From: Polaromonas sp.
GTDB taxonomy: Bacteria; Pseudomonadota; Gammaproteobacteria; Burkholderiales; Burkholderiaceae_C
Assembly (NCBI GenBank): GCA_013298945.1
Contig: JAAFJR010000008.1
Coordinates: forward strand, 17,293 to 81,292
Direction of reading: 5' to 3'
DNA: 64,000 nucleotides
Part shown: positions 6,966 to 35,137 of the stretch, piece by piece
Numbering within the stretch: position 1 is the first letter of the stretch
How the letters are laid out: each line of letters starts with the position of its first letter
Notes under the pieces: model-generated
What the model was told of the DNA's origin: nothing
The model's input: the letters and a program-made list of their open reading frames with translations, nothing else
Databases searched by the model: none
Program-made: the position numbers and the translations under genes

Positions 6966-7060
6966 TTACTAGCAAATTTATATAACTATAATTATAAGGA
7001 AAATTTATTAAAAATATTGTTTTTGTAAATTTTAAGAATTGCCTGAATCAAATTTTTCCA

Positions 7061-7351
7061 TGGTTATAGTCGATGATATTTTTGATGATAAAAAACAACC
7101 TTTACTTGTCGATGACAATGCCGTTAACCGGCTTCTCGCAGTTTTGTTTTAATAGATAATGTGGATTAATGCGGATACAGCAAATGATGGTTTTGAGTCA
7201 TTCGAGCTTATTAAGGTAATTTTGTGATTGCCTTCTCTGCCAGTACTTTTGAATCTGATAAAAAATCACTAAAAAAGCTGGTGTGAATGCTTTTATATCA
7301 AAGCCGTTCAAATTTGATGATTTAAAGGAAAGTTTATCAATTCCGCGCTAA
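7061..7351 (+). pseudogene. decayed receiver (REC) domain remnant
   Basis: Three frames together read LLVDDNAVNRLLAVLF** / NADTANDGFESFELIK / VIAFSASTFESDKKSLKK / AGVNAFISKPFKFDDLKESL. These are receiver-domain landmarks interrupted by stops and frameshifts, and the phospho-acceptor segment is missing. Confidence 0.7.
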
Positions 7352-7381
7352 TTGTAAAAACACATAAAGTTGTCACAACTT

Positions 7382-8683
7382 TTATGCCTTGCTAGGATCC
7401 TCAAATTTTTCAAATTTATTTCCCGAAAGGCTTGCTGCAATATATCTGCATACAACACCCATTGCTAACGCCAGTACTGCGTGCTCTAAAATATTGCTTA
7501 CTCCACCATACCAATTGATGATTACTGCGAGCAAAAGCATGTCTTGCAGGTCCTCCCTTTTTGAGGTGCCTGAGAACTTGAGCAAGGTGGCAATCCCAAG
7601 AACAAATATAGGTATAGCGAACACACCAACTAGCACATAGGAATAGACAAATACGTTGTCACCTGCGTTAGCCATAGCTGGCTCAAAAATACTGACTGGA
7701 ACCCCTATACCACCTAAGCCACGACCTAGCAGGGGTAATCCATGTTCATGCGCTAATTGTAAAGCTCTTGGCCACATATCATTCATTCGGTCGATAAATG
7801 AACCATACAAAGGGTTATCAATATCTGTACGAGCCGCTTCTTGCCAGTCCATAGTCCAGCCCATCATTGGTGGTACAAATAGCCAAAAAATACCTATGAC
7901 GAAAGTAAATCTTAATAATTTAGAGTTGTCGCGAATGAGGGCCTCGCTTGCAATCACTGTCATCATCAGAGCCAATAGAATGCCTTTAGATGTAGATAGC
8001 GATACTGCAACAGTACAAAAAATCCACAACAAAAATCGATAAAACCCTTTTGGTATTCGCAAACTTAGTAGACCAGCAGCAACTACGATTTGCCCTGCTA
8101 CGTCAAATGATGACCTGGCTAAGCCAGAGAGTCGCTGACTTCCTCCGCTTGTCTCCCACTCCCTAGCACCTTCTAGCTCAACGCCACCAACTTGATAAGA
8201 CACGCCTACCCATGGATAGGGTATGAAGCTATGCATAATAACGCCGCCCACTGCGATAAAAAACATAGCATAAAGCACCAACATTCGGTTTGACGGCTTC
8301 ACCATAAATGCTGGCGCACAAGTCAATCCAAACATAAAAGGTGCAAGTACCCACAATCCAAACACGGGTTGAACGACACTATTTGTTGTGACAATGCCGA
8401 CCAATAAGGAGAGTAAAACTAATGCAATGAATAAAAAAACACCCGAAGTTAGTTTTTGATAATAAAGCTTGTAAAACAGTATCGAAAGTGTGCATCCCAC
8501 CATCAATAGATTTGGAACATATGTCAAAGGAGCGGCTCCAACGATATCTAGTATCCAACGAACCACACCGCCATTAAGTTGCATCACCAAGAAAATAATA
8601 AGTGCAGCTCGGCACATGAACTGCCATTTTTTGATAAAACCTGGATCCAAATCACTTAGAACCCATGCGTCTAGCGAATTCAT
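7382..8683 (-). CDS. polytopic membrane protein, O-antigen polymerase/ligase (Wzy-like) family
   Basis: At least 10 TM segments and a large periplasmic loop. Located between a GT4 gene and the c-di-GMP genes in the EPS cluster. Confidence 0.6.
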   Translation of the reverse strand: MNSLDAWVLSDLDPGFIKKWQFMCRAALIIFLVMQLNGGVVRWILDIVGAAPLTYVPNLLMVGCTLSILFYKLYYQKLTSGVFLFIALVLLSLLVGIVTTNSVVQPVFGLWVLAPFMFGLTCAPAFMVKPSNRMLVLYAMFFIAVGGVIMHSFIPYPWVGVSYQVGGVELEGAREWETSGGSQRLSGLARSSFDVAGQIVVAAGLLSLRIPKGFYRFLLWIFCTVAVSLSTSKGILLALMMTVIASEALIRDNSKLLRFTFVIGIFWLFVPPMMGWTMDWQEAARTDIDNPLYGSFIDRMNDMWPRALQLAHEHGLPLLGRGLGGIGVPVSIFEPAMANAGDNVFVYSYVLVGVFAIPIFVLGIATLLKFSGTSKREDLQDMLLLAVIINWYGGVSNILEHAVLALAMGVVCRYIAASLSGNKFEKFEDPSKA

Positions 8684-8695
8684 GTGTATGCTTTT

Positions 8696-9916
8696 TTAAT
8701 CCATCAACTCTTTGAAAAGAGCTTCAAAAAGATCACATTGAACTTGAGAGCTATAATTTTTTCTTAAAGTTAGTGCTTTTTTACCTTTAGAAATAACTTC
8801 ACTTGGATTTCTGATGCAATTGTTCATTAATTTAGCAAGCTCTTGAATATCTCCGGCAGGGAAAATCCAACCACTATTTCCGTGTTCAACTCTTTCCGGC
8901 AATGCACCTCGATTGGAAACGATAGCAGGACGCCCCAAACAACCCGCCTCCATGACAACATTGCAAAAAGTTTCATGGGCTCTCGATGGTGTAATTAAAA
9001 CATCAATATTTAAATAAAATTCAGCCGCATTGACAACACCTAAAAATTCAACTGCTTCAAGTGGAACTGTCGGATCTAACCAGCGATCGCGCAATTGTTT
9101 GCCATCTCCATAACCACCTAATTTAATTTTAAAATGCCCCGCAGGCAGTAAATTTATGGCGCTTAGTAATGTATCAACACCTTTACTTTCATCAAGTCTC
9201 CCCAAGAACCCAAAGACCATAGGACGATGAATATCAAATTCATTTGATAAATCGGGCCAATTCTCTGGTAATGCGTTTGCTATTACTCTTGTATTTGTAA
9301 CATCATTGAACCATCCGAACCTTCGATGTCTATCTAAAATAATTTGAGACGGGCCTACGACAACATCAGGTGATAGAGCTAAAAAATGCCTCGCCTTTGA
9401 GTAAACTGAACACTGTGTACAAACACTTTCACATACTTTTGCGCCTTTGGTCATCGCTGTAGATGGACATATCAAGGCATGGTCATGCGTCATATGCACA
9501 ATGTTTGCACCGACTCTCTTTGCTTCAGCCCAAATTGCAACTGAAAATCCTTGCAAAGTATGCGTCATCACAATATCGGGTTGTATTTTCTCAAATACAG
9601 TTCTAACACGCGATGCCATTCTCAAATTGTAAACATCCAATACGTGCCAGAGTGCTTTTTTAATTGATGAAGCTGGCACTGGATTTTTTTGACCATCAAG
9701 TCCGTATGGATCGTATATTTGTGACAACGGTATCTGCCAAACCCTCACGCCAGAATCTGATTGATAACTGCTTTCTTTACTGCCAATCGCGCCCAATGAG
9801 ACTATAGAAACCTCATGCCCGCGAAGCATCAAATTATTGGCAAGTATTCCCGCAGTCCTCTCAGCTCCGCCAATTGCGTCTTTCCCATAGACGCTCATTA
9901 CCATAGCGATTCTCAT
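8696..9916 (-). CDS. glycosyltransferase family 4
   Basis: N-terminus MRIAMVMSVYGKDAIGGAERTAGILANNL and a C-terminal GT1/GT4 motif region (ETFCNVVMEAGCLGRPAIVS). Confidence 0.8.
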   Translation of the reverse strand: MRIAMVMSVYGKDAIGGAERTAGILANNLMLRGHEVSIVSLGAIGSKESSYQSDSGVRVWQIPLSQIYDPYGLDGQKNPVPASSIKKALWHVLDVYNLRMASRVRTVFEKIQPDIVMTHTLQGFSVAIWAEAKRVGANIVHMTHDHALICPSTAMTKGAKVCESVCTQCSVYSKARHFLALSPDVVVGPSQIILDRHRRFGWFNDVTNTRVIANALPENWPDLSNEFDIHRPMVFGFLGRLDESKGVDTLLSAINLLPAGHFKIKLGGYGDGKQLRDRWLDPTVPLEAVEFLGVVNAAEFYLNIDVLITPSRAHETFCNVVMEAGCLGRPAIVSNRGALPERVEHGNSGWIFPAGDIQELAKLMNNCIRNPSEVISKGKKALTLRKNYSSQVQCDLFEALFKELMD

Positions 9917-11154
9917 CGGGTTCCTTTATTTATCAATACAATCGCAGCAATTGAAAGCAAAAGTTCAGAAATACACAAACCAATTGCAGTACCGAATGCG
10001 CCGTAGAAATATGCACCCACGCTCGAAAAAAAACAAACTAAAACTGCCTCAAACCATTGAAAACTGGCAATGATTTTAAGACTACCTGTAGCTGACCAAT
10101 AATATGTTACTGCAGCTTTACGTAATCCATATATAAATAGCCAAATTACTAAGGTTTTTAATATCAAAGATGCGGATAAAAATGAGTTTCCGTAAAGTAA
10201 ATACAATATCCAATCTGATAATATTGCTACTAAACCACACCCTATGAATAAAATACCACCCAAGATAGCCAGTGCACGTAAACGTAATTTATCAGCACGT
10301 GCTATATTTTTATTATTTTCTTTTGCGAGCCAACCCATGAATGATTGCTCCACAAAACTTAATACATGTGCAGCTGCACGTGTCAACCTATCAGCTGCAG
10401 TAAATAATCCCGTCTGAAAAGATCCTGACAAATATCCCAATGCCAAAACAGGAACAGAGACGCTTGCGCTTGAAAAAAAACCAGAAAATATATTATGTTT
10501 GACGTCTTTTAAATATTCTCGCCATGAAATCCAATTAATTCCCTGCATTTCTGGTTTAAAGCTTCGCCACCAGCTAGGCATCAATAACAAGCCAGCTATC
10601 AGAGTTCCGCTACATGATGCAACACAAGCAATTATTAGGTCATCAGTAGATTTAACAAATAGCCAAATTATTACTGCACTGATTAAACGTCCGCACATCA
10701 AAGCAACCCCCATGCTTAGGCCTTTTTGCCGAGCAACATACCACCACTGAGGAAAAATCAATGTTCCAAGTACTAATAAAAGTGACCAACCGACCAACAA
10801 GAAAGGTAAGTCTGGAACAAAATAGCCAACCAATAATACTATGAGTATTATTGGAAGACTACATATAAACCTAGCTATAAAATTGTCAATTAAAACTTGC
10901 TGAGACGTTAGAGGATCAACAGCAATCGATGCTCTTCTTTGAGATTCAGTATTAAAACCAGCATCAACAAATACCACTGCAAGAAATACAACTGCTTGTG
11001 CAAGCATTAACTGACCAAATAGGGTTACCCCCAAACTCCGAGCTAATATTGGCAAAGTCAGCAATGGGATTATCATCCCCAGGACTTGAAATATAACCAA
11101 CCAAAGGGTAGCTTTGGCTATATTGTTGCCAGTTGCATTTTTTTCACTCATCAA
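9913..11154 (-). CDS. wzx: oligosaccharide flippase (Wzx, MOP superfamily)
   Basis: About 12 TM helices with a polysaccharide-biosynthesis-protein-like N-terminus. Has a 4-nt overlap with the downstream GT gene. Confidence 0.7.
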   Translation of the reverse strand: MMSEKNATGNNIAKATLWLVIFQVLGMIIPLLTLPILARSLGVTLFGQLMLAQAVVFLAVVFVDAGFNTESQRRASIAVDPLTSQQVLIDNFIARFICSLPIILIVLLVGYFVPDLPFLLVGWSLLLVLGTLIFPQWWYVARQKGLSMGVALMCGRLISAVIIWLFVKSTDDLIIACVASCSGTLIAGLLLMPSWWRSFKPEMQGINWISWREYLKDVKHNIFSGFFSSASVSVPVLALGYLSGSFQTGLFTAADRLTRAAAHVLSFVEQSFMGWLAKENNKNIARADKLRLRALAILGGILFIGCGLVAILSDWILYLLYGNSFLSASLILKTLVIWLFIYGLRKAAVTYYWSATGSLKIIASFQWFEAVLVCFFSSVGAYFYGAFGTAIGLCISELLLSIAAIVLINKGTR

Positions 11155-11217
11155 AATAGAATATAGTTTATTTGTGAGATTAGCATGCTATTTTTACAAT
11201 TAATATAATTTAGGTTG

Positions 11218-12417
11218 TTATTTTATTCGCAAAAAAGCAATGAAAACTTTATGCCATCTATCTCTACGTTCGAAGTCAGTGAATAAAATATCCCAAGCGA
11301 GTGCAAAAATGATTGCAAGAAAGAAGCCAATCAAAGCTCCAATGATGGCATTTACAAAAACTCGAGGCCCAGATTTCTTGGTCGGTGCTACAGCGGCATC
11401 CAGTATTGAAATCACTGAAAAATCTCTAGATTCATCTATTCTTGAAAGCGCCCTTGCCTTCGTTAGCTGCTCTAAAACATTGTTATTTATTTCTTCCTCA
11501 CGCCGTAATGGTTCAACTTTTGCACGCAATTCAGCATACGACTGAAATGGTACAAAAATTTCATCATTAACCTTGTTTAAAGTGTCTGAAATATCTGTAG
11601 TATTCCGCCTCGAACGCGTACCTGCTATTGAAGCAAGCTGTGACTTTAATGCAGCCAATTCGGTTTGCATTCTTACCACTTCTGGATGGTTGTTAGTGGC
11701 AACGACAGCCATTTTTTGAAGCTCAACTTGCCGAGTTGCAATCATGCCACGTAACTCTACGACCACAGCAGAAGAGGCTTCTTCTTGTCCTTTAAGTCGA
11801 GTTAGACCAGTTAAACGCTCCATCTCAAGTAGTGCCTTACTTGAGTTATCTAGCTTTTTTCGTGCTTCTATAATTAAGCCATCATAGAACTCTAGACGTC
11901 GCTCAGATTCTGCTCTCGCAAGTTTTCTGGCAATTGTATACATGGCATTAATCATTCCGTTTGCAATATCTGCAGCGGAATCTCCCTTTTTGTCTGTGTA
12001 GGCTAGTGTGATAATGCCATCACGCCCTACTTCAACTTTAGTTCTTTTCCCGACTAAAACTCGCAGATCATCGATGTCATCTACTCCATAATGCTTACTT
12101 AAATTAAATTGTTTAATCACATCATCTTGAACGGAACGACTAAAAAATAAACTAGCATATAAATCTGACGGATTCTTGAGGGTTAATGCAGATGCACCAA
12201 GAACAGCTGTTCCACCTATTTGATTCAACAAAGAAGATGCTGTGGCCGTATTAGTCTGGGGGGGTAGCATACGAGCATAAGCTGTAAAAACAGGCAATGA
12301 TAGATAGGAATTAACTCCAACAGCTGCTCCGACAATAAGAGGCAGCAATATTAATAACCATCTATATTTAGACAGCCGAAGCATCAACCCAGAAACACCT
12401 ACATTTGGTACGCTCAT
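11218..12417 (-). CDS. polysaccharide chain-length determinant (Wzz/GumC-type PCP) without a kinase domain
   Basis: TM helix, then a long coiled-coil periplasmic region, then a C-terminal TM helix. I prefer the start MSVPNVG at 12417 because it forms an ATGA overlap with the upstream stop. Confidence 0.7.
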   Translation of the reverse strand: MSVPNVGVSGLMLRLSKYRWLLILLPLIVGAAVGVNSYLSLPVFTAYARMLPPQTNTATASSLLNQIGGTAVLGASALTLKNPSDLYASLFFSRSVQDDVIKQFNLSKHYGVDDIDDLRVLVGKRTKVEVGRDGIITLAYTDKKGDSAADIANGMINAMYTIARKLARAESERRLEFYDGLIIEARKKLDNSSKALLEMERLTGLTRLKGQEEASSAVVVELRGMIATRQVELQKMAVVATNNHPEVVRMQTELAALKSQLASIAGTRSRRNTTDISDTLNKVNDEIFVPFQSYAELRAKVEPLRREEEINNNVLEQLTKARALSRIDESRDFSVISILDAAVAPTKKSGPRVFVNAIIGALIGFFLAIIFALAWDILFTDFERRDRWHKVFIAFLRIK

Positions 12418-14792
12418 AAGCTTGATCGCAGTATCTTTATTGCCGCGCCGCCTAAACCCAATTGATAAAAAATCTGACTCCAATCACGGAAAATTCTTGT
12501 CCAGCTTGTAGACTGTACATCTTCGGGCACAACAATGGTATCCCCAGGATTAATTTCAAGTGATCCACCACTCATCCAGCCACCTTGTTGCCGTACCGTT
12601 CCGTCTGCACGATAAACTACTAACCCTGAGCGATCTGCGTGTTGTCGCAATCCACCTGAATTATCAATATAATTTTGACTTGTCCAAGCTGAATTCCAAA
12701 GAAGACTACCCTGCCTGAATACTGAACCTACTACAGTTACAGTTGCTGGCTTTGTGGGGATAAAAATAGAATCAAGATCTTCTAGCGCTACTGAAGGTAT
12801 ATCCTTATACTGCGCTGTTGAACCTAACAAATTCAAAGGTATTCTGCCTTCAGGTTGAATATTTCTCAACCTGCCTATCAATGACTTAATCGATTCAATC
12901 TCACCAGTACTAACGACACCCTCTTCTTGCGTAGTTGCAGTTCTTGACCGGCTAGCTAGATATCGAAAATAATCCTGCTCTATACGATCGGTAATGTCCT
13001 TAAGTCGCAAGGCTTCATCTTTTTTTGCACTTTCTCTGCTAAAGATGGTACCGAACATATAAGCTTGATTTGTAATCCCACCTGCTCGAAGAATTACTTG
13101 ACTCAAAGTTTCACCTTGCCCTACAGAATAAATTCCTGGTGCTTTTACCTCACCCTCAACTTTGACTAGTTTTAATTTTTTTTCTTGTGGTTGTTTAAAA
13201 TCACTTTTTGAAAATATAACAATTGTGTCACCAGATATCAGCGTTAAGTCATTTTCCAAATCTTTTGCAAGAGCTTTTGCCAAATTAAAAGGGATGACAC
13301 TAGTTGATAATGAAACAGAATCAATTCTTTCAACGGCCGCATAATCCCACTCCATATCTGGAAAGTCTCTACGGAAATCTGTATCTCTTGAAAGCTCAGT
13401 TAAACTCATAAGATTCGAGCGTCCATTTTGCTGCATCCATGCGGCGGGCCGTATCAATCCATCTTTTGGACTCAAGACATCTGATATACGTAAACCTGAA
13501 GTCCAGGGTTGTCGTAGCGGCTGAGCAACATTTCCTCTAACCGTTATAAATTGCTCAAAACGGGGGGAAGGCGGCAATATCATAAGGATATCACCATCTT
13601 GTAATGTTTTGTCTGCCCCCAGTTGTCCTAAATTAATATTTTCTATCTGACGGCCGCCATCCTTAAGTCGCTCTAAGCGAACATTTGGTTTTTGTTGAGA
13701 TAAGCTCAATCCACCGGCAAATCCAATCACTTCGGATATTAGTGTTTTATCGCCTAAATGATAAATAGCTGGGCGCTTAACAGCTCCACCAATAGCTACG
13801 AAACCTTTAGCCGCAGGAATAAAAATAACATCACCTGGCAATAGCTGTGGGTCGCTCGTTTTATCACCCTCAATAATCAATTTATAAGCGTCTACAACTG
13901 CCACAATCTTACCCCCACGTCGCAACTCAATTTTTCTAAAATCGCCAGTAGGTAATGGACCTCCAGATGCTAATAATCCATGGAGTGCTGTTGCAGTAGA
14001 CTCGGTTGTATGAATACCTGGTTTTTTTGCAAATCCTGCAACATAAAACTGAATTTGCCTTAATGCGCCCAAAGTCACTGTCAATTCAAAATTTTTATAT
14101 TGCTTAGAAATTTGAGTATTAATCAGTGACTTAAGATCTGAAATTTTCTGACCAGCCACCATAATTTGGCCTATTTTTGGTAAGAATATTAAACCAGAAC
14201 GATCAACTTGTCCTTGAAAATCAATATCAATCTGCCCCCAAGCACGAATTAAAAGTTCATCACCAGGACCAACACGATAATCTGCAGGTATGGTCAAAGG
14301 ATCTAAAGCTGACTGCAATGATCTACCATCAAAAAGTTCAGCTCCAAAAATAGGCAACATAGAACCGAATGAACTCTGTACTAGATCGGGAAAATCATAT
14401 GGAAATTTCAATGCTGGTTGCATTGAGTTTACAACTGGAGCATCAGCTGCAGCAGTCCCACCATTGGTACCACCAACAAAATTAGTAGTTTTATTCTCTA
14501 CTTTTGTCTCAAGAGATGTAGACAACTGAAGCTGCATTGGACCCTGCTTGGTAGCAGGCCTATCTTTCAAGTCATATCCTACTCCGGACCCTGCTGGTTT
14601 TGAAAAAATGCGCGACGGCGAAAAAATTCTATTGTCTTTGGTTAAATCACCTGGTAATGGAGCCTGCAAAAGTTGCGATGCACTGCTTGTAGAGGGTTGA
14701 CTAGTATCGTTTTGTGCGATAACAAAACTTGAATAAAATACAAAAAAAACTAATGATATAGTTTGCAAAAATATTTTAAAAAAGCTTTTCAT
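12414..14792 (-). CDS. large outer-membrane polysaccharide export protein (Wza/KpsD-like with several SLBB-type modules)
   Basis: Signal peptide MKSFFKIFLQTISLVFFVFYSSFVIAQ. Poly_export-like YRVGPGDELLIRAWGQ, then repeated ...GDV/GDI...P motifs typical of SLBB domains. Confidence 0.75.
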   Translation of the reverse strand: MKSFFKIFLQTISLVFFVFYSSFVIAQNDTSQPSTSSASQLLQAPLPGDLTKDNRIFSPSRIFSKPAGSGVGYDLKDRPATKQGPMQLQLSTSLETKVENKTTNFVGGTNGGTAAADAPVVNSMQPALKFPYDFPDLVQSSFGSMLPIFGAELFDGRSLQSALDPLTIPADYRVGPGDELLIRAWGQIDIDFQGQVDRSGLIFLPKIGQIMVAGQKISDLKSLINTQISKQYKNFELTVTLGALRQIQFYVAGFAKKPGIHTTESTATALHGLLASGGPLPTGDFRKIELRRGGKIVAVVDAYKLIIEGDKTSDPQLLPGDVIFIPAAKGFVAIGGAVKRPAIYHLGDKTLISEVIGFAGGLSLSQQKPNVRLERLKDGGRQIENINLGQLGADKTLQDGDILMILPPSPRFEQFITVRGNVAQPLRQPWTSGLRISDVLSPKDGLIRPAAWMQQNGRSNLMSLTELSRDTDFRRDFPDMEWDYAAVERIDSVSLSTSVIPFNLAKALAKDLENDLTLISGDTIVIFSKSDFKQPQEKKLKLVKVEGEVKAPGIYSVGQGETLSQVILRAGGITNQAYMFGTIFSRESAKKDEALRLKDITDRIEQDYFRYLASRSRTATTQEEGVVSTGEIESIKSLIGRLRNIQPEGRIPLNLLGSTAQYKDIPSVALEDLDSIFIPTKPATVTVVGSVFRQGSLLWNSAWTSQNYIDNSGGLRQHADRSGLVVYRADGTVRQQGGWMSGGSLEINPGDTIVVPEDVQSTSWTRIFRDWSQIFYQLGLGGAAIKILRSSL

Positions 14793-14841
14793 GAATATAG
14801 CTTTTAACATATTAATTTTAAAGACTTTAATCATAATTTGT

Positions 14842-16251
14842 TTAATAAGCATTTTTACCAGTAATGACTAATTTAATTGTGCGCAATATGACATATATAT
14901 CTAGCATTGGCGTCCAATTTCTCAAATACTCTAAATCGTACTCCACTCGTTTCTCCATCTTATCAATGGTATCAGTTTCACCTCGAAACCCATGTATTTG
15001 AGCCCATCCAGTTAAACCCGGTTTAACTTTATGACGAAGCATATAGCCCTTAACAAGTCCTCTATATTGTCTGTTGTGTCCTGCAGCGTGTGGCCTGGGG
15101 CCCACGATGCTCATATCGCCCTTAAAAATATTTATCAATTGCGGTAATTCATCGATGGACGTTCGACGAATGAAAGCACCCACCTTTGTTACTCGCATGT
15201 CATTTTGAGTTGTTTGCACTACAGTTTCTCCATCACTTGAAGCATTGCTGGTTGCTTGCGTCATCGATCTGAATTTATAAATTTGAAAAGGTTGTGCGCC
15301 ATTACCCCATCTATTTTGCATAAAAAATACTGGACCTTTTGAATCAATTTTTATCCAAATTGCCACCAATATTAACAATGGCAAAAGCACTATTAAACCA
15401 ATAGAAGAACCTAAAATATCAAAAATACGTTTAATGACAGAATCAAACCCTTTGCCGGGTGAGTCAATAATCGTAAATACCGACATACTGCCAATGGGAG
15501 TCATAGCCTCCCTAATTGGGCGAAACAATAAAAAATCATGTAAGTAATGCACTGAACAAGTACTGTCTAGCAACTGCTCCAACACAAAACCGAATCTATA
15601 GCTTGCTTCAGTAGGTAAAGAAACTAATACATGGTCTACATTTTGATTCGTAATATAGTCTGCAATTGCATCTATGCGACATAGGATTTTAAAAGGAGTG
15701 TATTCGGGAATCCTATCATCTGTTCGATCTTCGAAAAAACCAAGAAAATCAACTGCTAAAAACCTTTGAGTTGAAAGGCTTTGAGCGAAAGCTACACTAG
15801 AACTGGTAACTGCAGCAATAGCGAGATTGATTGGCTTTCTTTTGAATATTTTCAATACTGAAATTTCAATAAAAATAATAGTTAATATTGAACTAAAAAT
15901 CCATAAAAATGAAGAAAAATAAATACACTGCTTCCATTTTTCACTCCAAGATCCATCAATTGCAAAAACAATATTTGCTAATAAATATATCAACAAAGAT
16001 TTACTAAGTAAATCACTAAAAACCGCAAATCGAAAACTTTTTATCTTAGTTAGCTTGTGAATATCGAAACGAACCCAAACCATCGACAGCGCTAAAACAA
16101 TTAATAATGGCCAAAGACCTTTGTCACTGCCATCAAACCAGCCATAAAACCATGCTAAACAAATAGAACAAAACGCAGGCACGACTAACTGGATAACGTA
16201 CCTAAAAGGATTACGTATCGCTAAAAAATCTGAACCAGAACCATATTGCAC
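14842..16251 (-). CDS. undecaprenyl-phosphate hexose-1-phosphate transferase (WbaP/WcaJ-type initiating enzyme)
   Basis: C-terminal bacterial sugar transferase domain: [20 protein letters not shown]...YKFRSM...[21 protein letters not shown]. Confidence 0.85.
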
Positions 16252-16399
16252 TTGATAGTCTCCAGAAAATTGACCATTCTTTGGTGTTTTTAATTAAAAA
16301 AAGCTGCCTTGACCTTGCAATCAAGTCTAACTCTTATATAGTAAAGCAATTCTAAGCAGTGTATTTCTTTTTTTCAAAAAAATCTTCAAAGCTCTAAAC

Positions 16400-17500
16400 A
16401 TGAATTCGAAAACGATTTGGGTAAATGGCCGATATCTATCACGGAAAATAACAGGCGTTGAACGGGTTGCTGGCGAAATCTTAGCGAGTCTAGCGCAACA
16501 CTATCTTGACAGACAAGGTCGCTACCAAGGGAAAAGTACTGCGCTTCAATTCAAACTTGCTGTTGAAAGCGACTCTACTTTTTCTATCCCTTCTTATGCT
16601 GAAGGTTGGGAGGTCAAACGAATTGGAAATAGAAAAGGCCACGCCTGGGAACAATTGGATTTAGCCAGTTTACCTTCGAAAGATTGGGTACTAAGCTTGT
16701 GCAATACGGGGCCAATACTGAGAGGGAATCACGTCATTTTCTTTCATGATGCTCAGGTGTATGCGATTCCGCAAAATTTTGACTGGAAATTTAGATGGTG
16801 GTACAAAGCCTTACTCAATTTTTCTGGAAGAAGAAGTAAAGCGATTCTTACAAATTCAGAATTTTCGAAATCTGAACTATCAAAATTCACTAGGATTGCA
16901 AACGAAAAATTTGAGACCATCCTTCTTGGTTGCGATCACATGCTCAGAATTACTCCAGAAATCCCACGAGAACTTTTGACTAAACTTGCCGGGAAGCCAT
17001 ATGTTTTAGCAGTTTCTAGTGCAAGCCCTAATAAAAATTTTTCAAGTGTTTTAAAGGCTCTTGAACACTTAGGATCTGATGCCCCACATTGTGTAATCGT
17101 TGGACAACAGTATTCAAAAGTATTCAAAAATTCGAAATTAAATAGTGATCGCGTAATTGAAATGGGATACGTTAGCGATGAAACACTTGCTGGACTCTAT
17201 GCAAATGCAATGTGTCTTGTGTACCCTTCTTTTTATGAGGGTTTTGGACTACCCCCATTGGAAGCAATGCTACTTGGTTGCCCAGTAATAGCCAGCAATT
17301 GCTCCTCATTACCTGAAGTTTGCGGCACTGCTGCTATATACTGCGATCCTAACGACCCTACTACTATTGCAAATTCAATTTTATATTTAACTCAAAATCC
17401 AGAAAAAGTAAGTACGATGCGAATAACAAGTAAAGTTCATGCTGAAAATTTTACCTGGCGAAAGAGTGCAACACATTTGCTTGAAGTTTTAGAAAAATAA
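16400..17500 (+). CDS. glycosyltransferase family 4
   Basis: YPSFYEGFGLPPLEAMLLGCPVIASN motif. Confidence 0.8.
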   Translation: MNSKTIWVNGRYLSRKITGVERVAGEILASLAQHYLDRQGRYQGKSTALQFKLAVESDSTFSIPSYAEGWEVKRIGNRKGHAWEQLDLASLPSKDWVLSLCNTGPILRGNHVIFFHDAQVYAIPQNFDWKFRWWYKALLNFSGRRSKAILTNSEFSKSELSKFTRIANEKFETILLGCDHMLRITPEIPRELLTKLAGKPYVLAVSSASPNKNFSSVLKALEHLGSDAPHCVIVGQQYSKVFKNSKLNSDRVIEMGYVSDETLAGLYANAMCLVYPSFYEGFGLPPLEAMLLGCPVIASNCSSLPEVCGTAAIYCDPNDPTTIANSILYLTQNPEKVSTMRITSKVHAENFTWRKSATHLLEVLEK

Positions 17501-17578
17501 GGAAGTATCCATTATTCAAATAGTAACCAATTTAATAGATTAGTAATTTTTTACACAAAACATTGCAGGAGCTAGCAA

Positions 17579-18706
17579 ATGAAAGTAGCAGTTGTTCATG
17601 ATTGGTTAGTTATTTACGGAGGTGCAGAGCGCGTGCTCGAACACATTTTGGATATGTATCCTCAAGCAGATGTGTTTTCACTTATCGATTTTGTTCCGGA
17701 GAATCAACGTCATTTTTTACGTGGAAAAAAACCAATAACAAGCTTTCTACAAAACCTACCTGGTGCGAAGAAACACTATCGAAAATTTTTACCCTTCATG
17801 CCATTTGCAATCGAGCAATTTGATTTGTCTCACTATGATTTGGTTATCTCAAGTACATATTGTGTAGCAAAAGGCGTATTAACTGGCCCAAATCAAGTGC
17901 ATGTTTCTTATTGTCACTCACCAATGAGGTACGCTTGGGATCATTATCACGAATATTTACGTGAAATGAATTTGGAAAAAGGAATAAAAAGTTGGTTTGC
18001 ACGGTGGCAGTTGCATAAGATTAGAACTTGGGATGTTCGCTCAAACAACAGCGTTGATCATTTTGTATCAAATTCAAAATTTGTCTCTCGGCGCATTTCG
18101 AAATACTATGGACGAGAAAGTGTGATTGTAAATCCGCCTGTTGACACCTCTATTTTTAAGCTTCAAAATGAAAAAGAAGACTACTATGTCACTGCAGGAA
18201 GATTTGTTCCTTTTAAACGACTAGACATAGTTGCCGAAGCTTTTAAAAGCATGCCCAACAAAAAACTATTTATTCTCGGGGATGGACCTGAATTGGAAAA
18301 AATAAAAAGCAAAGCTGGACCAAATACAGTATTCCCTGGCTTCTTACCAGCTTCTGAAGTAAATAGGTATTTATCAAAAGCAAAAGCTTTTATATTTCCC
18401 TCTGAAGAGGATTTTGGGATCGTTCCCGTTGAAGCGCAGGCATGTGGTACGCCTGTGATTGCATTTGGCAAAGGAGGAGCTTTAGAGACCGTTATGCCTA
18501 TTGGTGTTCCCGGTATGGCACCAACAGGAATGTTCTTTCAAGAGCAAACTGCGGCATCAATCGTTCAAGCAGTGAAAGATTTTGAAGCTAATGCTTCGAT
18601 GTTTATTCCTAGCGACATACATAACCATGCACAAGCTTTTGCAATACCTAAATTTAAAGAAAAATTTCAAATTGAAATTGATAATACACTACTTAAATTT
18701 CAGTAA
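17579..18706 (+). CDS. glycosyltransferase family 4
   Basis: MKVAVVHDWLVIYGGAERVLEHI N-terminus and EEDFGIVPVEAQACGTPVIAF motif. Confidence 0.8.
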   Translation: MKVAVVHDWLVIYGGAERVLEHILDMYPQADVFSLIDFVPENQRHFLRGKKPITSFLQNLPGAKKHYRKFLPFMPFAIEQFDLSHYDLVISSTYCVAKGVLTGPNQVHVSYCHSPMRYAWDHYHEYLREMNLEKGIKSWFARWQLHKIRTWDVRSNNSVDHFVSNSKFVSRRISKYYGRESVIVNPPVDTSIFKLQNEKEDYYVTAGRFVPFKRLDIVAEAFKSMPNKKLFILGDGPELEKIKSKAGPNTVFPGFLPASEVNRYLSKAKAFIFPSEEDFGIVPVEAQACGTPVIAFGKGGALETVMPIGVPGMAPTGMFFQEQTAASIVQAVKDFEANASMFIPSDIHNHAQAFAIPKFKEKFQIEIDNTLLKFQ

Positions 18707-18776
18707 ATATTTTCCATTTTTAATATTACTTTTTAAAAAATTATTCATTTAACATATTTTTATCATAAATACTATT

Positions 18777-19721
18777 ATGGCACTTTCAGATTTCACCAAT
18801 AATGTCAAACCCAACATTGCTAGAGCACCAGTTACTAAAGCTGTATTTCCTGTAGCTGGCTTGGGTACCCGTTTTTTACCAGCAACCAAAGCTCAACCAA
18901 AAGAAATGCTGCCTGTTGTTGATAAACCTTTAATTCAATATGCTATTGAAGAAGCTTATTCCGCTGGTATCCGGCACATGATTTTCGTTACGGGACGAAA
19001 TAAGAGATCAATCGAAGATCATTTTGATACAGCATATGAACTTGAAGCTGAATTGGAAACAAATAACAAACTTGCCCTTTTAAGGCTGGTACAAGACATT
19101 AAACCCGATGATATGGATTGCTCATATGTGCGTCAACCTAGATCTCTAGGATTAGGCCATGCAGTTTTATGTGCTGAGCGTATGGTAGGCAACGAACCTT
19201 TTGCGGTTTTGCTTGCAGACGATTTGATGATCAACAAACCCTCAGCAGACCAAGTTGGGGGGACTCAACTATCTGTTTTGGCTCAAATGGTAAAGCTATA
19301 CGAGCACTTGGGGACTTCCATCTTAGCCGTACAGGAAGTACCTATGGAAATGGTTAGCCGCTACGGTATTGTTGCGGGGGAGGTTGCCGAGGACAGGTTA
19401 AGCAGAGTTAATAAAATTATTGAGAAACCTAAACCTGAAAATGCACCCTCTAATTTAGCTGTTGCAGGTCGCTACATATTAACCCCTGAAATATTCAATC
19501 AAATCAGGCGGCAAACGACAGGCGTACAAGGCGAGATTCAACTTACAGATGGCATAGCGAATTTACTAAAAACACAACATGTACACGCTTACCAATACTA
19601 TGGCAAAAGATATGATTGCGGCAGCAAAGAAGGCTTCTTGGAAGCAACAGTAGAGCTTGCACTACAACATCCCGAAGTTGGAGCAACTTTCCGGAAATTT
19701 TTACAAGATATGAAGTTTTAG
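18777..19721 (+). CDS. galU: UTP--glucose-1-phosphate uridylyltransferase
   Basis: [40 protein letters not shown] signature. Confidence 0.9.
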
Positions 19722-19753
19722 GCTGTTAAATTGAATGTGGGTTTATATAGCTG

Positions 19754-20107
19754 CTAGTTTTGCTTTATTACCCACTGTTTTAAATCCGCGATGAAACCTT
19801 GGACATGAACGCTTAGTTCTTCCATTGTCTTTTTAAGCACGAGCTCATTGTCAACAACTCGCAATAAGGCATCCGCTTTTTGCATAATTTCTTCAGTTTT
19901 ATTATCTGAAAAAATCGGAATTGTTCCTTTCATGCCGTGCAAAATATTGGCTGCTTGCGCGTATTGATTTGTATTTAAATAATTTTCAAATTCTAACCAA
20001 TCGTTCTCAATAGATGAATCTAGCATAGTTAACATCTCGTGCACGAGCTCTTTGTCACCCACCCTTTCGATAGCGTCTTCTATACATAGGTATTTACTAT
20101 TTGCCAT
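19754..20107 (-). CDS. stand-alone Hpt (histidine phosphotransfer) domain protein
   Basis: Four-helix-bundle sized (117 aa) with a HGMKGT phospho-histidine motif. Confidence 0.7.
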   Translation of the reverse strand: MANSKYLCIEDAIERVGDKELVHEMLTMLDSSIENDWLEFENYLNTNQYAQAANILHGMKGTIPIFSDNKTEEIMQKADALLRVVDNELVLKKTMEELSVHVQGFIADLKQWVIKQN

Positions 20108-20229
20108 TTCGATTGTATTGGGTTTTATTGGGTTGTTTTGGTTTGGGTTATGCTTGGTTTATTTTATTGCAGTTCAAGATTTAAATAATTGCTTAGATGT
20201 TCAATCTATAATAATTTTTTAACTTCTAA

Positions 20230-20964
20230 TCATCTAAGCTGTACTGAACCATTAACCGTGACAGAGACCGTACTTTTCCCTGCTTCAACAGGCACTGAAA
20301 CGTCTGAAGTCGCCATTTTCATTGATACTTCTGCCATCCGCGGCCGGGGCATATAAGCTTGGTCACCAGCACTAACCGTTACTTCGCGTACAGTATAGCT
20401 ACCAAGACCAAAGCTTTTCGCGATATCGGCAGCTTTGGCGCGGAAGCGATCAATGGCCGTATGCTGTGCCTCGGTTTCCACTTTGGCACGCTGCTCGCGG
20501 CTGAGGCTGAACGCGACATTGGCAATCGTTAGGGTCTGAATTTTGCCGGCTGCAGCGCTGATTTTGGCGAAATCGCGCCCCTCTAACACCAGCTCTGTCG
20601 TGCCCTGCCAGCCGTTGATTTTGCCGTCTTTGCCGTAGCGCGGGTAAAGGCTGAAGTTGCCTGTGCGTACATCGAGTTGACCTGAAGCCGCCGTCTTTTT
20701 AGCCTCTATTAACGCGGCATCCAAAGCAGTTTTAAGCTGTGTTTGTACGAGGTTGGCATCAGCCGCTTCACGTGTGGTGCTCATGTTGATGGTCAAAATA
20801 TCTTGCTGCACCTCTACAGCGGCATTGGCGCTGAGTTGAACGATATTTTGCGGCTCTTGATAGCGTTGAGCATCTTGATTTATCTGAGCAAATAAGGCTG
20901 TATTCGGCGTAATTATTGCCTGAATAGCTATAATTTTAATAGCAAATAAAAAATGTTCGTTCAT
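20230..20964 (-). CDS. SIMPL/DUF541-family periplasmic protein
   Basis: LSANAAVEVQQDILTINMSTTREAADANLVQTQLKTALDAAL and C-terminal VSVTVNGSVQL, typical of DUF541. Confidence 0.75.
   Translation of the reverse strand: MNEHFLFAIKIIAIQAIITPNTALFAQINQDAQRYQEPQNIVQLSANAAVEVQQDILTINMSTTREAADANLVQTQLKTALDAALIEAKKTAASGQLDVRTGNFSLYPRYGKDGKINGWQGTTELVLEGRDFAKISAAAGKIQTLTIANVAFSLSREQRAKVETEAQHTAIDRFRAKAADIAKSFGLGSYTVREVTVSAGDQAYMPRPRMAEVSMKMATSDVSVPVEAGKSTVSVTVNGSVQLR
20896..20943 (-). repeat. 48-bp dispersed repeat, copy B (in frame in the SIMPL gene N-terminus)
   Basis: ggctgtattcggcgtaattattgcctgaatagctataattttaatagc. Encodes AIKIIAIQAIITPNTA. CAG variant. Confidence 0.9.
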
Positions 20965-21036
20965 GTTTTTTTACGTTTGGGAGGACTGCTTTTACGCAAT
21001 TTTAAATTGCGGTAAATTGCGTTTAGTTGAATGCGA

Positions 21037-32030: not shown

Positions 32031-32072
32031 GAAACTTGAAAACTAACGAGTTGGGAGTGAAATTTTAGGCAT

Positions 32073-32102
32073 AAAAAAAGAGCTTTCCAATCTGAAAAGC
32101 TC
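32073..32102 (-). terminator. rho-independent terminator downstream of the LuxR-type regulator gene
   Basis: The minus strand reads GAGCTTT-tcagattgg-AAAGCTC followed by T7. Confidence 0.6.
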
Positions 32103-32160
32103 ATCCTGCCTAGTTTCGATTTAGCCCTATTTTACGAGGGTCTTGCCTCGAAAACCTAGT

Positions 32161-32973
32161 CTAACTGAGCAAGCCTTGGTTCTTTGCACTGCTAACTGCT
32201 TGAGCACGTGTGTGCACTTGCAATTTTCGGTAAATGTTCTTGATATGCGTGGTCACGGTTTGCGTGCTGATATTGATTCTCATGGCGATAGCACTGCTGG
32301 TGCAACCATCTGCCACCAACTCTAAAATTTCACGTTCTCTGTATGACAAAACACCATTACCAAGCATTGGAATGACTTGGTTGCGCGTGCTTTGGAAGTC
32401 AATGTGCGAGCCGTGGGTTAATTTTTTAACGAGCCGCCGCGCCAGGCTGGGCGATATAAAAGCGCCACCATTGGCAACTTGCAGTACAGCTTGCGCATAG
32501 TTGCCAAACCAAGAGTTTTTGACAATATAGCCATTTGCGCCCAAATCAAAAGCGGTGATCGCCTTTTCTTCATCATCCATCATTGACACTACAAGTGCCT
32601 CAGCAGCGGGTCGGTGCATGCGCATGTATTTCAACAGCTCAAAGCTCATGCCATCGCGCAGGTTCAAGTCTAAAAGCATTACATCGAAAGCATAGTTTGC
32701 TATCAAATTTCTACCTTCACGCATGTTACTTGCTGTCGCCACTAGCGTGGTGCGTGGGTCAGAACCCAACTCTTGACCAACGACTGTGCGCATGTGCGCA
32801 TCCTCTTCAATCAAGATCACGCGCAATGGCTGGTTAGCTTGACCCAACAAAAAGTCGGGCCACAAATTTGCAGGATTCGCAAAATATGCAAATTGACCTT
32901 GCGATGCTAGCTTGGATGCATTCGCTTCGTTTGCAGTATTTGTATTGCTAAATGTGGTTACTTGTTGATTCAT
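32161..32973 (-). CDS. NarL/FixJ-type response regulator (REC + LuxR HTH) with a ~50-aa N-terminal extension, in a CsgD-like position
   Basis: REC landmarks ILIEED, VMLLDLNLRDG and GANGYIVK. C-terminal LSYREREILELVADGCTSSAIAMRINISTQTVTTHIKNIYRKL. Divergent from the repeat-protein operon. Confidence 0.8.
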   Translation of the reverse strand: MNQQVTTFSNTNTANEANASKLASQGQFAYFANPANLWPDFLLGQANQPLRVILIEEDAHMRTVVGQELGSDPRTTLVATASNMREGRNLIANYAFDVMLLDLNLRDGMSFELLKYMRMHRPAAEALVVSMMDDEEKAITAFDLGANGYIVKNSWFGNYAQAVLQVANGGAFISPSLARRLVKKLTHGSHIDFQSTRNQVIPMLGNGVLSYREREILELVADGCTSSAIAMRINISTQTVTTHIKNIYRKLQVHTRAQAVSSAKNQGLLS

Positions 32974-33585
32974 GTCACACCCCTTTGTATACGTATCAAT
33001 TGGTTAACTTTTCACAGTTGACATGTATGAACATTAACCACTCTTGGTGACAAATGCTATGTAAATAATGCCCAAAAATAGAACCTTTTAACTTACAAAA
33101 CTATGCGTTTTAGTTAAAAACGGTACAGTAATATATTGACTAAGCAGTAAAGAGCGCTTTTTCCCAATGAAAACGCGCCAATCGAAGCGCCACCAAAAAA
33201 CACGAACAACTTCAAAAAATACAACTGGAATATCTCACCAAATAGTTAAATGTTTCATAAATTTACAAATGATTCACTACGAAACTACCTTTTTTTTAAG
33301 CTTATACCCAGCTAATACGCAAACTTTTCACAGCAATTCTCATTAAGTGCGTCAAAAAGTACACATATTTTGGGTAATAAAACACGGTATTTTTGGTAGA
33401 CGCAACGCGGTATTGAAACACCCCCCTGCAAAACGGAAACTAGCTCCAGATGAAAACAGAAGCGATGCGACAAATAAATTTTGAAAGCATTGCATCTGAT
33501 TTCATCAAAGCTTCCGAGCACCGTTGAGCCACAAGATGTTCGGGAATTTTTAAATTCATTTAAACGTTTCTTTAGGGGATTTATC

Positions 33586-34071
33586 ATGAAAAAACTTTCC
33601 GTATTAGCCTTGGCATTGTTCGCAGCATCAGCATTTGCAACAAGTGGTGGTGGTAGTGGTGGCGGCAGTGGGGGTCCTTCTGCTTCGACTGATGTTGTCA
33701 TCAGCGGTACATCAACTCAAAGCGCCACTCTCAACAGTGTGAATGTGTCTAACCGCGTTTCAGGCAACGACAACGTTGGTCAGCAAAACTTGGCATCAAA
33801 CGCTGGCGATATCGATATTCGTGGTCGTTCAACTCAAACTGTATCAGCACGTGGCGGCTCTATCACCAACACGGTGACAGGCACTGACAACGTCGCAAGC
33901 CAAAACTTGTCGTCAAACATTGGCCAAGTTTCTATCAGCGGAACGTCCACACAGACAACATCGACAACTTACGCTAACGTGAGCAACAACGTTAGCGGAC
34001 GTGACAACTCTGGCACTCAAAACATTGCATCTAACAACTCTTGCACAACTTGCGTTGGCGGACATCGTTAA
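33586..34071 (+). CDS. secreted repeat protein 1: candidate fibre/amyloid-like major subunit (3 x 39-aa Q/N/S/T repeats, Gly/Ser-rich N-terminus, CxxC tail)
   Basis: AGGGGA Shine-Dalgarno. Signal peptide MKKLSVLALALFAASAFA, then TSGGGSGGGSGGPS. Three 39-aa repeats I[SR]GxSTQ...N.V[ST]GxDN...QN[LI][AS]SNxG. Ends in SCTTCVGGHR. Confidence 0.75.
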   Translation: MKKLSVLALALFAASAFATSGGGSGGGSGGPSASTDVVISGTSTQSATLNSVNVSNRVSGNDNVGQQNLASNAGDIDIRGRSTQTVSARGGSITNTVTGTDNVASQNLSSNIGQVSISGTSTQTTSTTYANVSNNVSGRDNSGTQNIASNNSCTTCVGGHR

Positions 34072-34089
34072 TTTGAGTTATCAGAAAAA

Positions 34090-34140
34090 CTTTCAAGAAC
34101 ATGTTGCGACGTTAGAAATAGCTAGCCATGTTTTTGAAAG
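34090..34140 (+). promoter_or_regulatory. intercistronic hairpin between the two repeat-protein genes
   Basis: ctttcaagaacatg (23 nt loop) catgtttttgaaag. A 14-bp stem with one G-U pair; a T-rich tract lies farther downstream. Confidence 0.4.
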
Positions 34141-34186
34141 TTACTGAAAGTTTGAATCATTCGTTTTTTGTGTTGGGAGAACTGTT

Positions 34187-34657
34187 GTGAAAACTACTTT
34201 GTCGCTTTGTCTGTCATTGGTATTGAGTATGGTTACGTCAAACTCGGGCGCCACAGGTTATGACCCAGTTTTAATTTCTGGCTCTTCCACACAAATTGCC
34301 TCCATCAACAATTCAACTATCAGCAATACCGTATTCGGCAACGACAGTACAGCGCAACAAAACTTAGCCAGTAATGCGGGGGGCGTTGTGATTACTGGAA
34401 ATTCACTCCAAATGGTTGCAGCGTATGGTAGCTTCGCTCGAAACGAGGTTATTGGCAGCGAAAGCATGGCCAGTCAGAATTTTTCATCCAATATGGGTGA
34501 TACACAAATCAGTGGCAGATCGATGCAAATCACATCTATGCAAGGGACTTACGCCTACAACAGTGCACAAGGTCATAGCACCTATGCCATACAAAATGTC
34601 GCATCTAACAATGCTTGTTTTAGTTGCCCATCGGGAAACTGCAACTTTAGACGTTGA
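34187..34657 (+). CDS. secreted repeat protein 2: paralogue of protein 1 (candidate minor/nucleator subunit)
   Basis: GTG start 7 nt after GGGAGA. Signal peptide, then the same 3 x 39-aa repeat register (ISGSSTQ...QNLASNAGGVV / ITGNSLQ...QNFSSNMGDTQ / ISGRSMQ...QNVASNNA). Tail is CFSCPSGNC. Confidence 0.7.
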   Translation: MKTTLSLCLSLVLSMVTSNSGATGYDPVLISGSSTQIASINNSTISNTVFGNDSTAQQNLASNAGGVVITGNSLQMVAAYGSFARNEVIGSESMASQNFSSNMGDTQISGRSMQITSMQGTYAYNSAQGHSTYAIQNVASNNACFSCPSGNCNFRR

Positions 34658-34711: not shown

Positions 34712-35137
34712 ATGAAAAACCATTCCAAAATCTCAGCTCTTTGCATCGCAATTTATTTGATCGCTTCTGCACCAGCTTTAGCGCAATTTGCCCCAGGCGA
34801 AGACCCCATCAATTTGACCAAAGTATCCAAAACTGAGCTGCGTCCTACTGCACCACAGCAAGTTTCTGGAAATCTTGACCCGCTTTTTGGTATGCAGGGT
34901 TGGCTGCGTGCTCGCGTAACTCGCTATGAAGCGCGGGCCTATTCTGACAATACGTCCGACAACCTTTTGACAGATAACGACGCCGTTACCACCGCTAGCG
35001 CCCAAGGCTTAAATAAAGTCTGTGTGCAAGAGGTTGGTAGCTCAACGACAAGCTCCACCGGCTTTGGAAAATACGGTCCAAAAGGCGGTGCACAAATCGT
35101 GGTTTTAAAAGGCGATTTGGTCAACATCTGCAAATAA
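34712..35137 (+). CDS. small secreted protein of unknown function (141 aa, two Cys)
   Basis: Signal peptide MKNHSKISALCIAIYLIASAPALA|Q. Shine-Dalgarno agaggtga. Positioned between the repeat proteins and the CsgG-like gene. Confidence 0.6.
   Translation: MKNHSKISALCIAIYLIASAPALAQFAPGEDPINLTKVSKTELRPTAPQQVSGNLDPLFGMQGWLRARVTRYEARAYSDNTSDNLLTDNDAVTTASAQGLNKVCVQEVGSSTTSSTGFGKYGPKGGAQIVVLKGDLVNICK

Follow-up and report, generated by a model that had tools for sequence, protein, structure and literature searches.

Two adjacent genes of Polaromonas sp., called here P1 and P2, probably encode the secreted subunits of an extracellular curli-like (amyloid-type) fibre with a beta-solenoid fold, produced by a dedicated and previously undescribed operon of the Comamonadaceae. 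They are located in a window of 64,000 nucleotides on contig JAAFJR010000008.1, and all coordinates given below are positions in this window. On the best reading, the subunit family and its accessory proteins are new and the kind of export (type VIII secretion-like) is already known. This interpretation relies on the variation of the repeat number among relatives, a nearby putative channel protein with a predicted CsgG fold, the conservation of the whole gene cassette, an RNA hairpin after the first subunit gene, the amino acid composition and the parallel with FapC. To our knowledge, few bacterial functional amyloid systems (curli, Fap, TasA and the chaplins) are understood at the gene level, and we know of no genes behind the amyloid fibres of many environmental bacteria.

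Repeat architecture and predicted fold of the proposed subunits

P1, the a-type and putative major subunit, occupies 33586..34071 on the + strand (ATG at 33586, stop codon at 34069-34071, 161 amino acids). It is composed of a signal peptide (residues 1-18), a Gly/Ser tract, three repeats of 39 amino acids (33700-33816, 33817-33933 and 33934-34050) and a CTTC motif (34042-34053). The signal peptide is classical and ends in SAFA ahead of the mature TS, which leads into the Gly/Ser tract. P2, the b-type and putative minor subunit, occupies 34187..34657 on the same strand (GTG at 34187 with GGGAG 7 nucleotides 5' of it, stop codon at 34655-34657, 156 amino acids), and combines a signal peptide with three 39-residue repeats (34274-34390, 34391-34507 and 34508-34624), a CFSC motif (34616-34627) and a third cysteine (34640-34642). 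Its mature form, as judged from the orthologues, would begin with TGYDPVL.

The original prediction, made from the letters alone, had described two paralogues sharing a 3 x 39-residue register and a terminal CxxC motif; the coordinates, the alignment and the self-comparison all agree with this description, and the repeat strings that it quoted are exactly those of the translation. Indeed, P1 and P2 align in a single register with 48% identity over 133 residues (E 5e-33), and the ungapped comparison of each protein with itself, summed with BLOSUM62, is maximal at offset 39 (168 for P1 and 125 for P2), offset 78 ranking second. In 2000 shuffled controls, in which the best score over all offsets was retained, the means were 24.7 (P1) and 5.9 (P2) and the maxima 70 and 39. 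Chance or a low-complexity artefact as the source of the repeats is ruled out by this shuffle test together with the alignment of the paralogues. Tandem Repeats Finder detects no tandem repeat over these genes at the DNA level, which points to an old repeat, visible at the level of the protein. The proposal that each unit consists of two half-turns of about 19-20 residues is not supported, since no such sub-period exists in either protein (offsets 19 and 20 score negative) and the phase of conservation shifts three times per repeat.

P2 had also been described as the more hydrophobic and aromatic of the pair and as devoid of the Gly/Ser tract. The composition bears this out, with a Phe, Trp and Tyr content of 7.5% in P2 versus 0.7% in P1, a Met content of 3.7% versus 0% and a grand average of hydropathy of -0.26 versus -0.51; the Gly/Ser tract of P1 is missing from P2. 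Asn, Gln, Ser, Thr, Gly and Ala together make up 72% of P1 and 63% of P2, compared with 66% of CsgA and 65% of FapC.

P1 and P2 are members of a small, wholly unannotated family. Neither has a meaningful match in Pfam or NCBIfam or a sequence match in the PDB, whether as a single sequence or as a profile, and 53 relatives searched against Pfam at E values up to 10 returned nothing meaningful. A word-indexed search of 5.8 billion proteins retrieved 107 relatives, all called hypothetical and none with a Pfam domain, and an exhaustive HMMER profile search (1.84 billion) matched only 180 cluster representatives at E values up to 0.001. All the named sources belong to the Comamonadaceae (Polaromonas, Simplicispira, Giesbergeria, Hydrogenophaga, Limnohabitans, Rhodoferax and Pulveribacter).

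In the family alignment A1, which comprises 53 three-repeat members, Q45, N68, S71, N72, Q84, S110, N111, Q123, Q145 and N150 are invariant and C153 and C156 nearly so. The recurrence of conserved positions at a fixed spacing, already claimed for P1 and P2, is confirmed by Gln, Asn and Ser residues that are invariant at a distance of 39, in ladder sets that are invariant or almost so (Q45/Q84/Q123, N68/N107/N146, S71/S110/S149 and N72/N111/N150). When the three repeats are pooled, the consensus reads ..g.s.Q......s.v.N.a.g....A.QNlaSN.g..., with Q7, N18, Q29, N30, S33 and N34 of the repeat conserved at 97-100%. The conserved positions are odd from 1 to 11, even from 14 to 22 and odd again from 27 to 33, followed by 34, 36 and 38, and gaps within the repeat cluster at positions 21-23. 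Such a phase pattern implies that each 39-residue unit is made of three or four short strands and is not composed of two similar halves.

The number of repeats among relatives ranges from 2 (about 100 amino acids) to at least 12 (509 amino acids). The larger versions, of 6 to at least 12 repeats, include P0030 (loci L040/L041), P0019, P0022 and P0108-P0114; P0030, of 262 amino acids, stands in the operon where other loci have a three-repeat gene. The many-repeat versions carry a central Cys pair (e.g. GSQGCNGNDCRD) and a Pro-rich, multi-Cys C-terminus, which suggests a fusion or an expansion of three-repeat units.

The earlier reading of P1 and P2 as fibre subunits built of stacked beta-solenoid rungs is supported by the 39-spaced invariant residues, by the nearby CsgG-fold lipoprotein described below and by structure prediction. 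An AlphaFold monomer model had been proposed as a check, and AlphaFold2, run on the 53-sequence alignment, confidently returned an all-beta structure with the same strand pattern in each repeat and a predicted local distance difference test score (pLDDT) of 86-93 over the repeats. At either end the model shows disorder (in the N-terminal tract and in the C-terminal tail), so that both edges of the solenoid would be open. In a Foldseek search of the PDB, the best match of the model was the CsgA fibril 8enq (E 0.044), and most of the others were beta-solenoid proteins.

The terminal CxxC is present in 52 of the 53 aligned members. Its first Cys takes position 37 of repeat 3; in repeats 1 and 2 this position is held by an Asp or Glu that leads on to the following repeat. 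The b-type protein, P2, adds a third Cys (CxxCxxxC). A second CxxC directly precedes repeat 1 in P0033, P0042, P0043 and P0049 (e.g. GNTCTECPEIVIDG) and would put Cys pairs at both stacking edges. In Polaromonas-type members (P0016, P0031 and P0035) the CxxC is followed by His/Gly-rich tails such as GGHGGGHGGH; the His-rich tail is missing from P1, P2 and the Limnohabitans-type members. The statement that CxxC is not a curlin feature is true, although it overlooked the C-terminal CxxC that follows the third repeat of FapC.

Putative export genes, cassette and expression

The third gene downstream of P1, P4 (35177..36820, + strand), encodes a lipoprotein of 547 amino acids with the lipobox ITGC, a putative outer-membrane secretion channel for which a CsgG fold is predicted. 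A CsgG-fold domain at about residues 60-275 is followed by a helical region and by DUF4384 at residues 407-487 (2.4e-13); PG_binding_1 matches the equivalent of this helical region in 15 of 16 homologues. The AlphaFold2 model of P4 has a mean pLDDT of 72.8 and a predicted template modelling (TM) score, pTM, of 0.46, and its 25 best Foldseek matches in the PDB are all CsgG, with E values of 6e-13 to 1e-6, a probability of 1.0, about 200-260 aligned columns and TM scores (target) of 0.40-0.72. At the sequence level, the HfaB model of NCBIfam is matched at 1.2e-6 over positions 3-258 of 264, with 27.9 bits versus a cutoff of 300, and is also matched by 10 of the 16 homologues. An hhalign comparison of the P4 family with E. 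coli CsgG gives E 0.0018 and a probability of 15%, over 21 residues only. The Pfam CsgG model has no match in the 16 homologues and the P4 sequence profile returns nothing from the PDB, the CsgG relationship being seen by structure comparison only. P4 is the best-conserved component of the cassette, with 53-60% identity in complete loci. Two homologues with 69-77% identity (P0256 and P0331) are filed under the eukaryotic source eukprot and are most likely bacterial contamination of eukaryotic datasets.

P4 is flanked by two genes for proteins with signal peptides. P3 (34712..35137, + strand; 141 amino acids, alignment A3), a candidate accessory factor, is found in every related locus. It carries an invariant PGED (APGEDP in most sequences) at its predicted mature N-terminus, two invariant Cys residues and the C-terminus VVL[KR]GDLVNIC[KR]. 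Its relatives form 947 clusters, all unnamed and including Acidovorax; P3 has no match in Pfam or NCBIfam and its profile search of the PDB was empty. A motif resembling G-x-D-P-V-x-L is common to the mature N-termini of the P2 type (TGYDPVLI, 34253-34276) and of P3 (consensus APGEDPVxL, 34790-34816; APGEDPINL in the window), and may be a recognition signal for the channel or a chaperone. P5 (36843..38027, + strand; 394 amino acids) is a Sel1-repeat protein (Pfam Sel1 3.5e-6; Sel1-repeat proteins of the PDB at 4e-9), a putative periplasmic scaffold or chaperone, and closes the cassette in the related loci that reach that far.

A tblastn analysis of 33 fetched loci recovered the order subunit, P3, P4, P5 in all of them wherever the contig reaches, with a divergent regulator upstream in most. 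The cassette is kept in 28 reference-genome loci and in further metagenome loci, in Polaromonas, Hydrogenophaga, Acidovorax, Limnohabitans, Simplicispira, Giesbergeria and Rhodoferax. Judging from these loci, the operon is common to many freshwater and soil Comamonadaceae. In searches of the literature on DUF4384, on CsgG-like systems in Betaproteobacteria and on amyloid in Comamonadaceae, no description of it was found.

The window has two subunit genes, as do two lineages related to it (L036/L037 and L038/L039). Orthologues are 59-66% identical for the a-type and 64-70% for the b-type, compared with 38-47% between types, and the types form two separate clades; the duplication therefore predates these three lineages, and both copies were retained. 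A single subunit gene occurs in 28 of 28 reference-genome loci and also in L004 and L040/L041, so that a second subunit is no requirement of the system. More distant cassettes (L035 and L043/L044, the latter on short contigs ending inside the P4-like gene) have two different repeat proteins, both free of Cys (an X-type and a Y-type, the QN-x-ASN motif being confined to the latter), followed by P3-like and P4-like genes and, in L035, by Sel1. In L035 (1155-5449) the Sel1 gene is followed by a pentapeptide-repeat gene, with a Tn7-like transposition module slightly further downstream. L034 (134-6585) holds a P3-like/P4-like pair that is very distantly related (26% identity to P4), next to genes for a Tubulin_2-domain protein of 1025 amino acids, an OmpA-domain protein and a second DUF4384 protein; the contig lacks its upstream end, so that no subunit gene is visible.

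The region between P1 and P2 (34071..34174, + strand) contains, according to folding, a stem-loop and a U-rich run, a putative partial terminator or mRNA stabiliser. The hairpin (34071-34157) has a predicted energy of -32.1 kcal/mol and a z-score of -2.96 versus shuffles, and is followed by the U-run. Comparable hairpins lie after the a-type gene in L036 (z -4.85) and L038 and after the single subunit gene in L028 (with the shape of a classical terminator), L001 and L016, and the spacers from the b-type gene to P3 are unstructured. The P1-P2 hairpin escaped a simple terminator scan, and no known RNA family was found in the P1-P2 spacer or in the leader upstream of P1 at the Rfam gathering thresholds. 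A hairpin after the first subunit gene is the layout expected of an abundant major subunit, with read-through to the minor subunit and assembly genes. P1 is thus probably the major, abundant subunit and P2 the minor one, possibly with a nucleating or anchoring role. The resemblance of P2 to a minor subunit or nucleator, suggested originally, is supported insofar as orthologous P1 and P2 lineages are kept in at least three related lineages and the hairpin follows only genes of the P1 type; the loci with a single gene speak against it.

Upstream of P1, a regulatory intergenic region of 612 bp (32974..33585) contains a leader at about 33370-33590 that nhmmer found only in the window's clade. Compared with L037 and L038, region and leader have a mean column identity of 81%, when the subunit proteins of these loci are only 59-66% identical. 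A long imperfect inverted repeat, GATGAAAACAGAAGCGATGC...GCATTGCATCTGATTTCATC, at about 33450-33510 is predicted to fold into a hairpin, and may function either as such in the 5'-UTR or as a palindromic operator. Beyond this region, a divergent response regulator with a receiver domain and a LuxR/GerE helix-turn-helix (32161..32973, - strand) matches Pfam GerE (2.7e-19) and Response_reg (1.1e-14) and, in NCBIfam, NarL (2e-31) and CsgD (8e-13, under the CsgD cutoff). It has the same position in related loci whose upstream flank is present. By eye, its receiver appears to keep the acidic residues, including the likely phospho-acceptor Asp. In related loci with a long enough upstream flank, a histidine kinase and then Tex often follow beyond the regulator. 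In the window (32031-32160, compared with L001, L004 and L040), as in L038, Tex comes directly after the regulator, which leaves the regulator of the window without an adjacent partner kinase.

In the mechanism proposed here, the subunits would cross the inner membrane through the Sec pathway, as their signal peptides indicate, and then the outer membrane through an oligomeric channel of P4, whose predicted CsgG fold suggests oligomerisation and transport. P3 and P5 may assist this export, as suggested by their strict co-occurrence with the other genes. Outside the cell, the AlphaFold2 model and the conservation suggest that each subunit would fold into three stacked 39-residue layers held together by the Gln/Asn/Ser ladders (Q7, N18, Q29, N30, S33 and N34), the uncapped edges allowing head-to-tail addition of subunits and, presumably, polymerisation. 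The CxxC, which replaces the G-[D/E]-hydrophobic junction into a would-be fourth repeat, is likely to be oxidised to a disulfide, either sealing the last layer or joining one subunit to another. P2 seems to share a transcript with the export genes, and expression is probably under the control of the divergent LuxR-type regulator, in the manner of CsgD in curli.

Elsewhere in the window, a low-GC island at 4000-21000 (ORFs 5072-19721; GC 0.36-0.43 versus 0.50-0.57 for most of the remaining window) corresponds to a Wzx/Wzy-type exopolysaccharide cluster with a priming sugar transferase, GT4 glycosyltransferases, a flippase, a Wzz/GNVR protein, a Poly_export/SLBB exporter and a nucleotidyl transferase. 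Positions 5072-6115 encode a response regulator of the HD-GYP type. The fibre locus, with a GC content of 0.43-0.47, is also under the backbone.

Alternative readings and significance

Several observations weigh against the assignment of P1 and P2 to an amyloid-type fibre. No experimental report on any member of the family was found in the literature, and neither sequence nor profile comparison reveals homology between the subunits and curlin, CsgB or FapC. For the subunit model, Foldseek yields no significant match (the best has an E value of 0.044 and a TM score of about 0.1), and the arrangement of one repeat per layer is an inference from the DSSP string and from the 39-residue ladder spacing and conservation phase. 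P4 scores under every curated CsgG or HfaB sequence threshold and its model is of moderate confidence (pLDDT 72.8, pTM 0.46). P3 was rejected as CsgE, CsgF or CsgC, with a profile probability below 1% for each. Lastly, every related locus examined outside the window's clade has a single subunit gene, which weakens the reading of P2 as a nucleator.

The most serious competitor, although an unlikely one, is a system resembling the holdfast anchor of Caulobacter (HfaA/HfaD/HfaB), in which short, SDS-resistant surface oligomers tether an exopolysaccharide and no long fibres are formed. HfaB is indeed the only curated sequence model touched by P4 (1.2e-6; 10 of 16 homologues), the peptidoglycan-binding domain of the P4 homologues would suit an anchoring complex, and the Wzx/Wzy-type polysaccharide cluster lies 13-28 kb upstream in the window. 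This cluster, however, is not beside the cassette in the other loci examined, the HfaB score stays at 27.9 bits versus 300, and NCBIfam offers no pointer to HfaA or HfaD in P1, P2, P3 or P5: at E values up to 1, P1 and P3 have no match and those of P2 and P5 are unrelated chance-level ones. An expansion to at least 12 repeats also suits a polymer more than an anchor. The same expansion bears on the very improbable idea that P1 and P2 are monomeric, non-polymerising beta-helix proteins that are secreted or surface-bound (ice-binding, antifreeze or adhesin-type), since a varying repeat number and a dedicated CsgG-fold channel are typical of fibre systems. The weak Foldseek matches do include many ice-binding beta-helices, both subunits are rich in Thr, Ser and Asn, and psychrophiles (Polaromonas, Simplicispira psychrophila) are among the hosts; these matches are nevertheless non-significant (E 0.5-2, TM about 0.1), the invariant residues line up as Gln/Asn/Ser ladders instead of forming a flat TxT-type face, and the termini are disordered, with no predicted capping element.

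Least probable of all is the view that the CxxC and the His/Gly-rich tails constitute a metal-binding or redox site of periplasmic or surface proteins for which the repeats are a mere scaffold. The near universality of the CxxC (52 of 53) and the many Polaromonas-type tails like GGHGGGHGGH could be explained in this way. Nevertheless, distant relatives in the same cassette have no Cys at all (L035, P0225-type), neither P1 and P2 nor the Limnohabitans-type members have the His-rich tail, and the same CxxC in FapC lies outside the amyloid core.

A curli-like fibre remains the preferred interpretation. A bolder version of it, which we regard as speculative, is that the cassette represents a third, independent class of Gram-negative functional amyloid, in which FapC-like three-layer subunits would be exported by a CsgG-fold channel bearing peptidoglycan-binding and DUF4384 domains, with the help of P3 and a Sel1 protein unrelated to the Csg and Fap factors, and in which the terminal CxxC, with its counterpart ahead of repeat 1 in some homologues, would form inter-subunit disulfides and produce a covalently stitched amyloid. 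If this were true, the operon could be the genetic basis of the amyloid adhesins of freshwater and activated-sludge Betaproteobacteria.

The cassette would combine an export fold of the curli type with subunits laid out like FapC and with new accessory proteins, and no part of it has a functional annotation in the databases searched. It would provide a testable candidate for the matrix fibres of Comamonadaceae from fresh water, glaciers and plant roots, would allow the contribution of repeat length and of Gln/Asn ladders to amyloid folds to be compared in nature, and would offer a case for the role of a conserved terminal CxxC in amyloid assembly. The divergent CsgG-like pore would also be of interest to secretion biology and nanopore engineering.

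Comparison with holdfast, curli and Fap systems

HfaB is a CsgG-like protein needed to place the amyloid-like (curlin-like) HfaA at the cell surface (PMC6707917). The weak full-length match between P4 and HfaB, and the position of a small secreted-protein gene directly before the channel gene, recall this system. The two differ in the score of the match (27.9 bits versus 300), in their taxonomic setting (Comamonadaceae versus Caulobacterales) and in the holdfast synthesis genes, none of which is linked to the cassette in related loci.

The curlin repeat is 19-23 amino acids long and forms two strands, with the pattern S-x5-Q-x4-N-x5-Q. The resemblance with curli lies in small Sec-dependent subunits with imperfect repeats, conserved Ser, Gln and Asn and a similar composition, in a predicted CsgG-fold outer-membrane lipoprotein in the same locus, and in a LuxR-type regulator that is divergent across a long intergenic region and holds the position of CsgD. 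Within the window's clade it extends to the two-paralogue subunits. The repeat number varies among CsgA homologues (PMC3521004), as it does among the homologues of P1 and P2. The differences are equally clear: the repeat of P1 and P2 has 39 residues and three or four strands instead of 19-23 and two; the subunits carry a terminal CxxC; P4 has no Pfam CsgG match and carries additional peptidoglycan-binding and DUF4384 domains; P3 and the Sel1 protein stand in the place of CsgE, CsgF and CsgC, of which there are no homologues; and the regulator has a complete receiver domain, with a partner kinase usual in related loci. The Curlin_rpt model has no match in P1 or P2 at E values up to 1, nor in the 53 members at E values up to 10 among the 25 families listed. 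Homology to CsgA or CsgB was rejected, the hhalign comparison with A1 aligning the signal peptide only.

In FapC, each of three repeats forms one cross-beta layer with conserved Asn/Gln networks (PMC12392863), and the Cys-containing tail, outside the amyloid core, has been suggested to influence fibrillation (bioRxiv 10.64898/2026.04.28.719052). Homology to FapC was rejected in the same way, since hhalign of A1 with FapC of strain UK4 also aligns the signal peptide only, and the A1 profile has no match at E values up to 10 among PDB sequences, including those of FapC (9u4u and 9nqd). The repeats of P1 and P2 are contiguous, whereas those of FapC are split by long linkers, and FapA, FapD (a C39 protease), FapE and FapF (a beta-barrel) are absent from the neighbourhood in the window and in related loci, which has a LuxR-type response regulator, P3, the CsgG-fold lipoprotein and a Sel1 protein instead; export would run through this lipoprotein. 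The subunit architecture is nevertheless closest to that of FapC. The PDB sequence of FapC UK4 has three repeats and the C-terminal end GSGCTVCAAGTGSKLAF, and three imperfect repeats followed by a C-terminal CxxC are common to FapC, P1, P2 and 52 of 53 relatives, a likeness that is architectural and not evidence of homology. The flavour of the motifs is comparable as well, NqQN-hydrophobic-(a/s) in FapC corresponding to A-x-Q-N-[LI]-[AS]-S-N in the family of P1 and P2, and both systems possess a pair of major and minor paralogues, FapC and FapB in one case and, putatively, P1 and P2 in the other.

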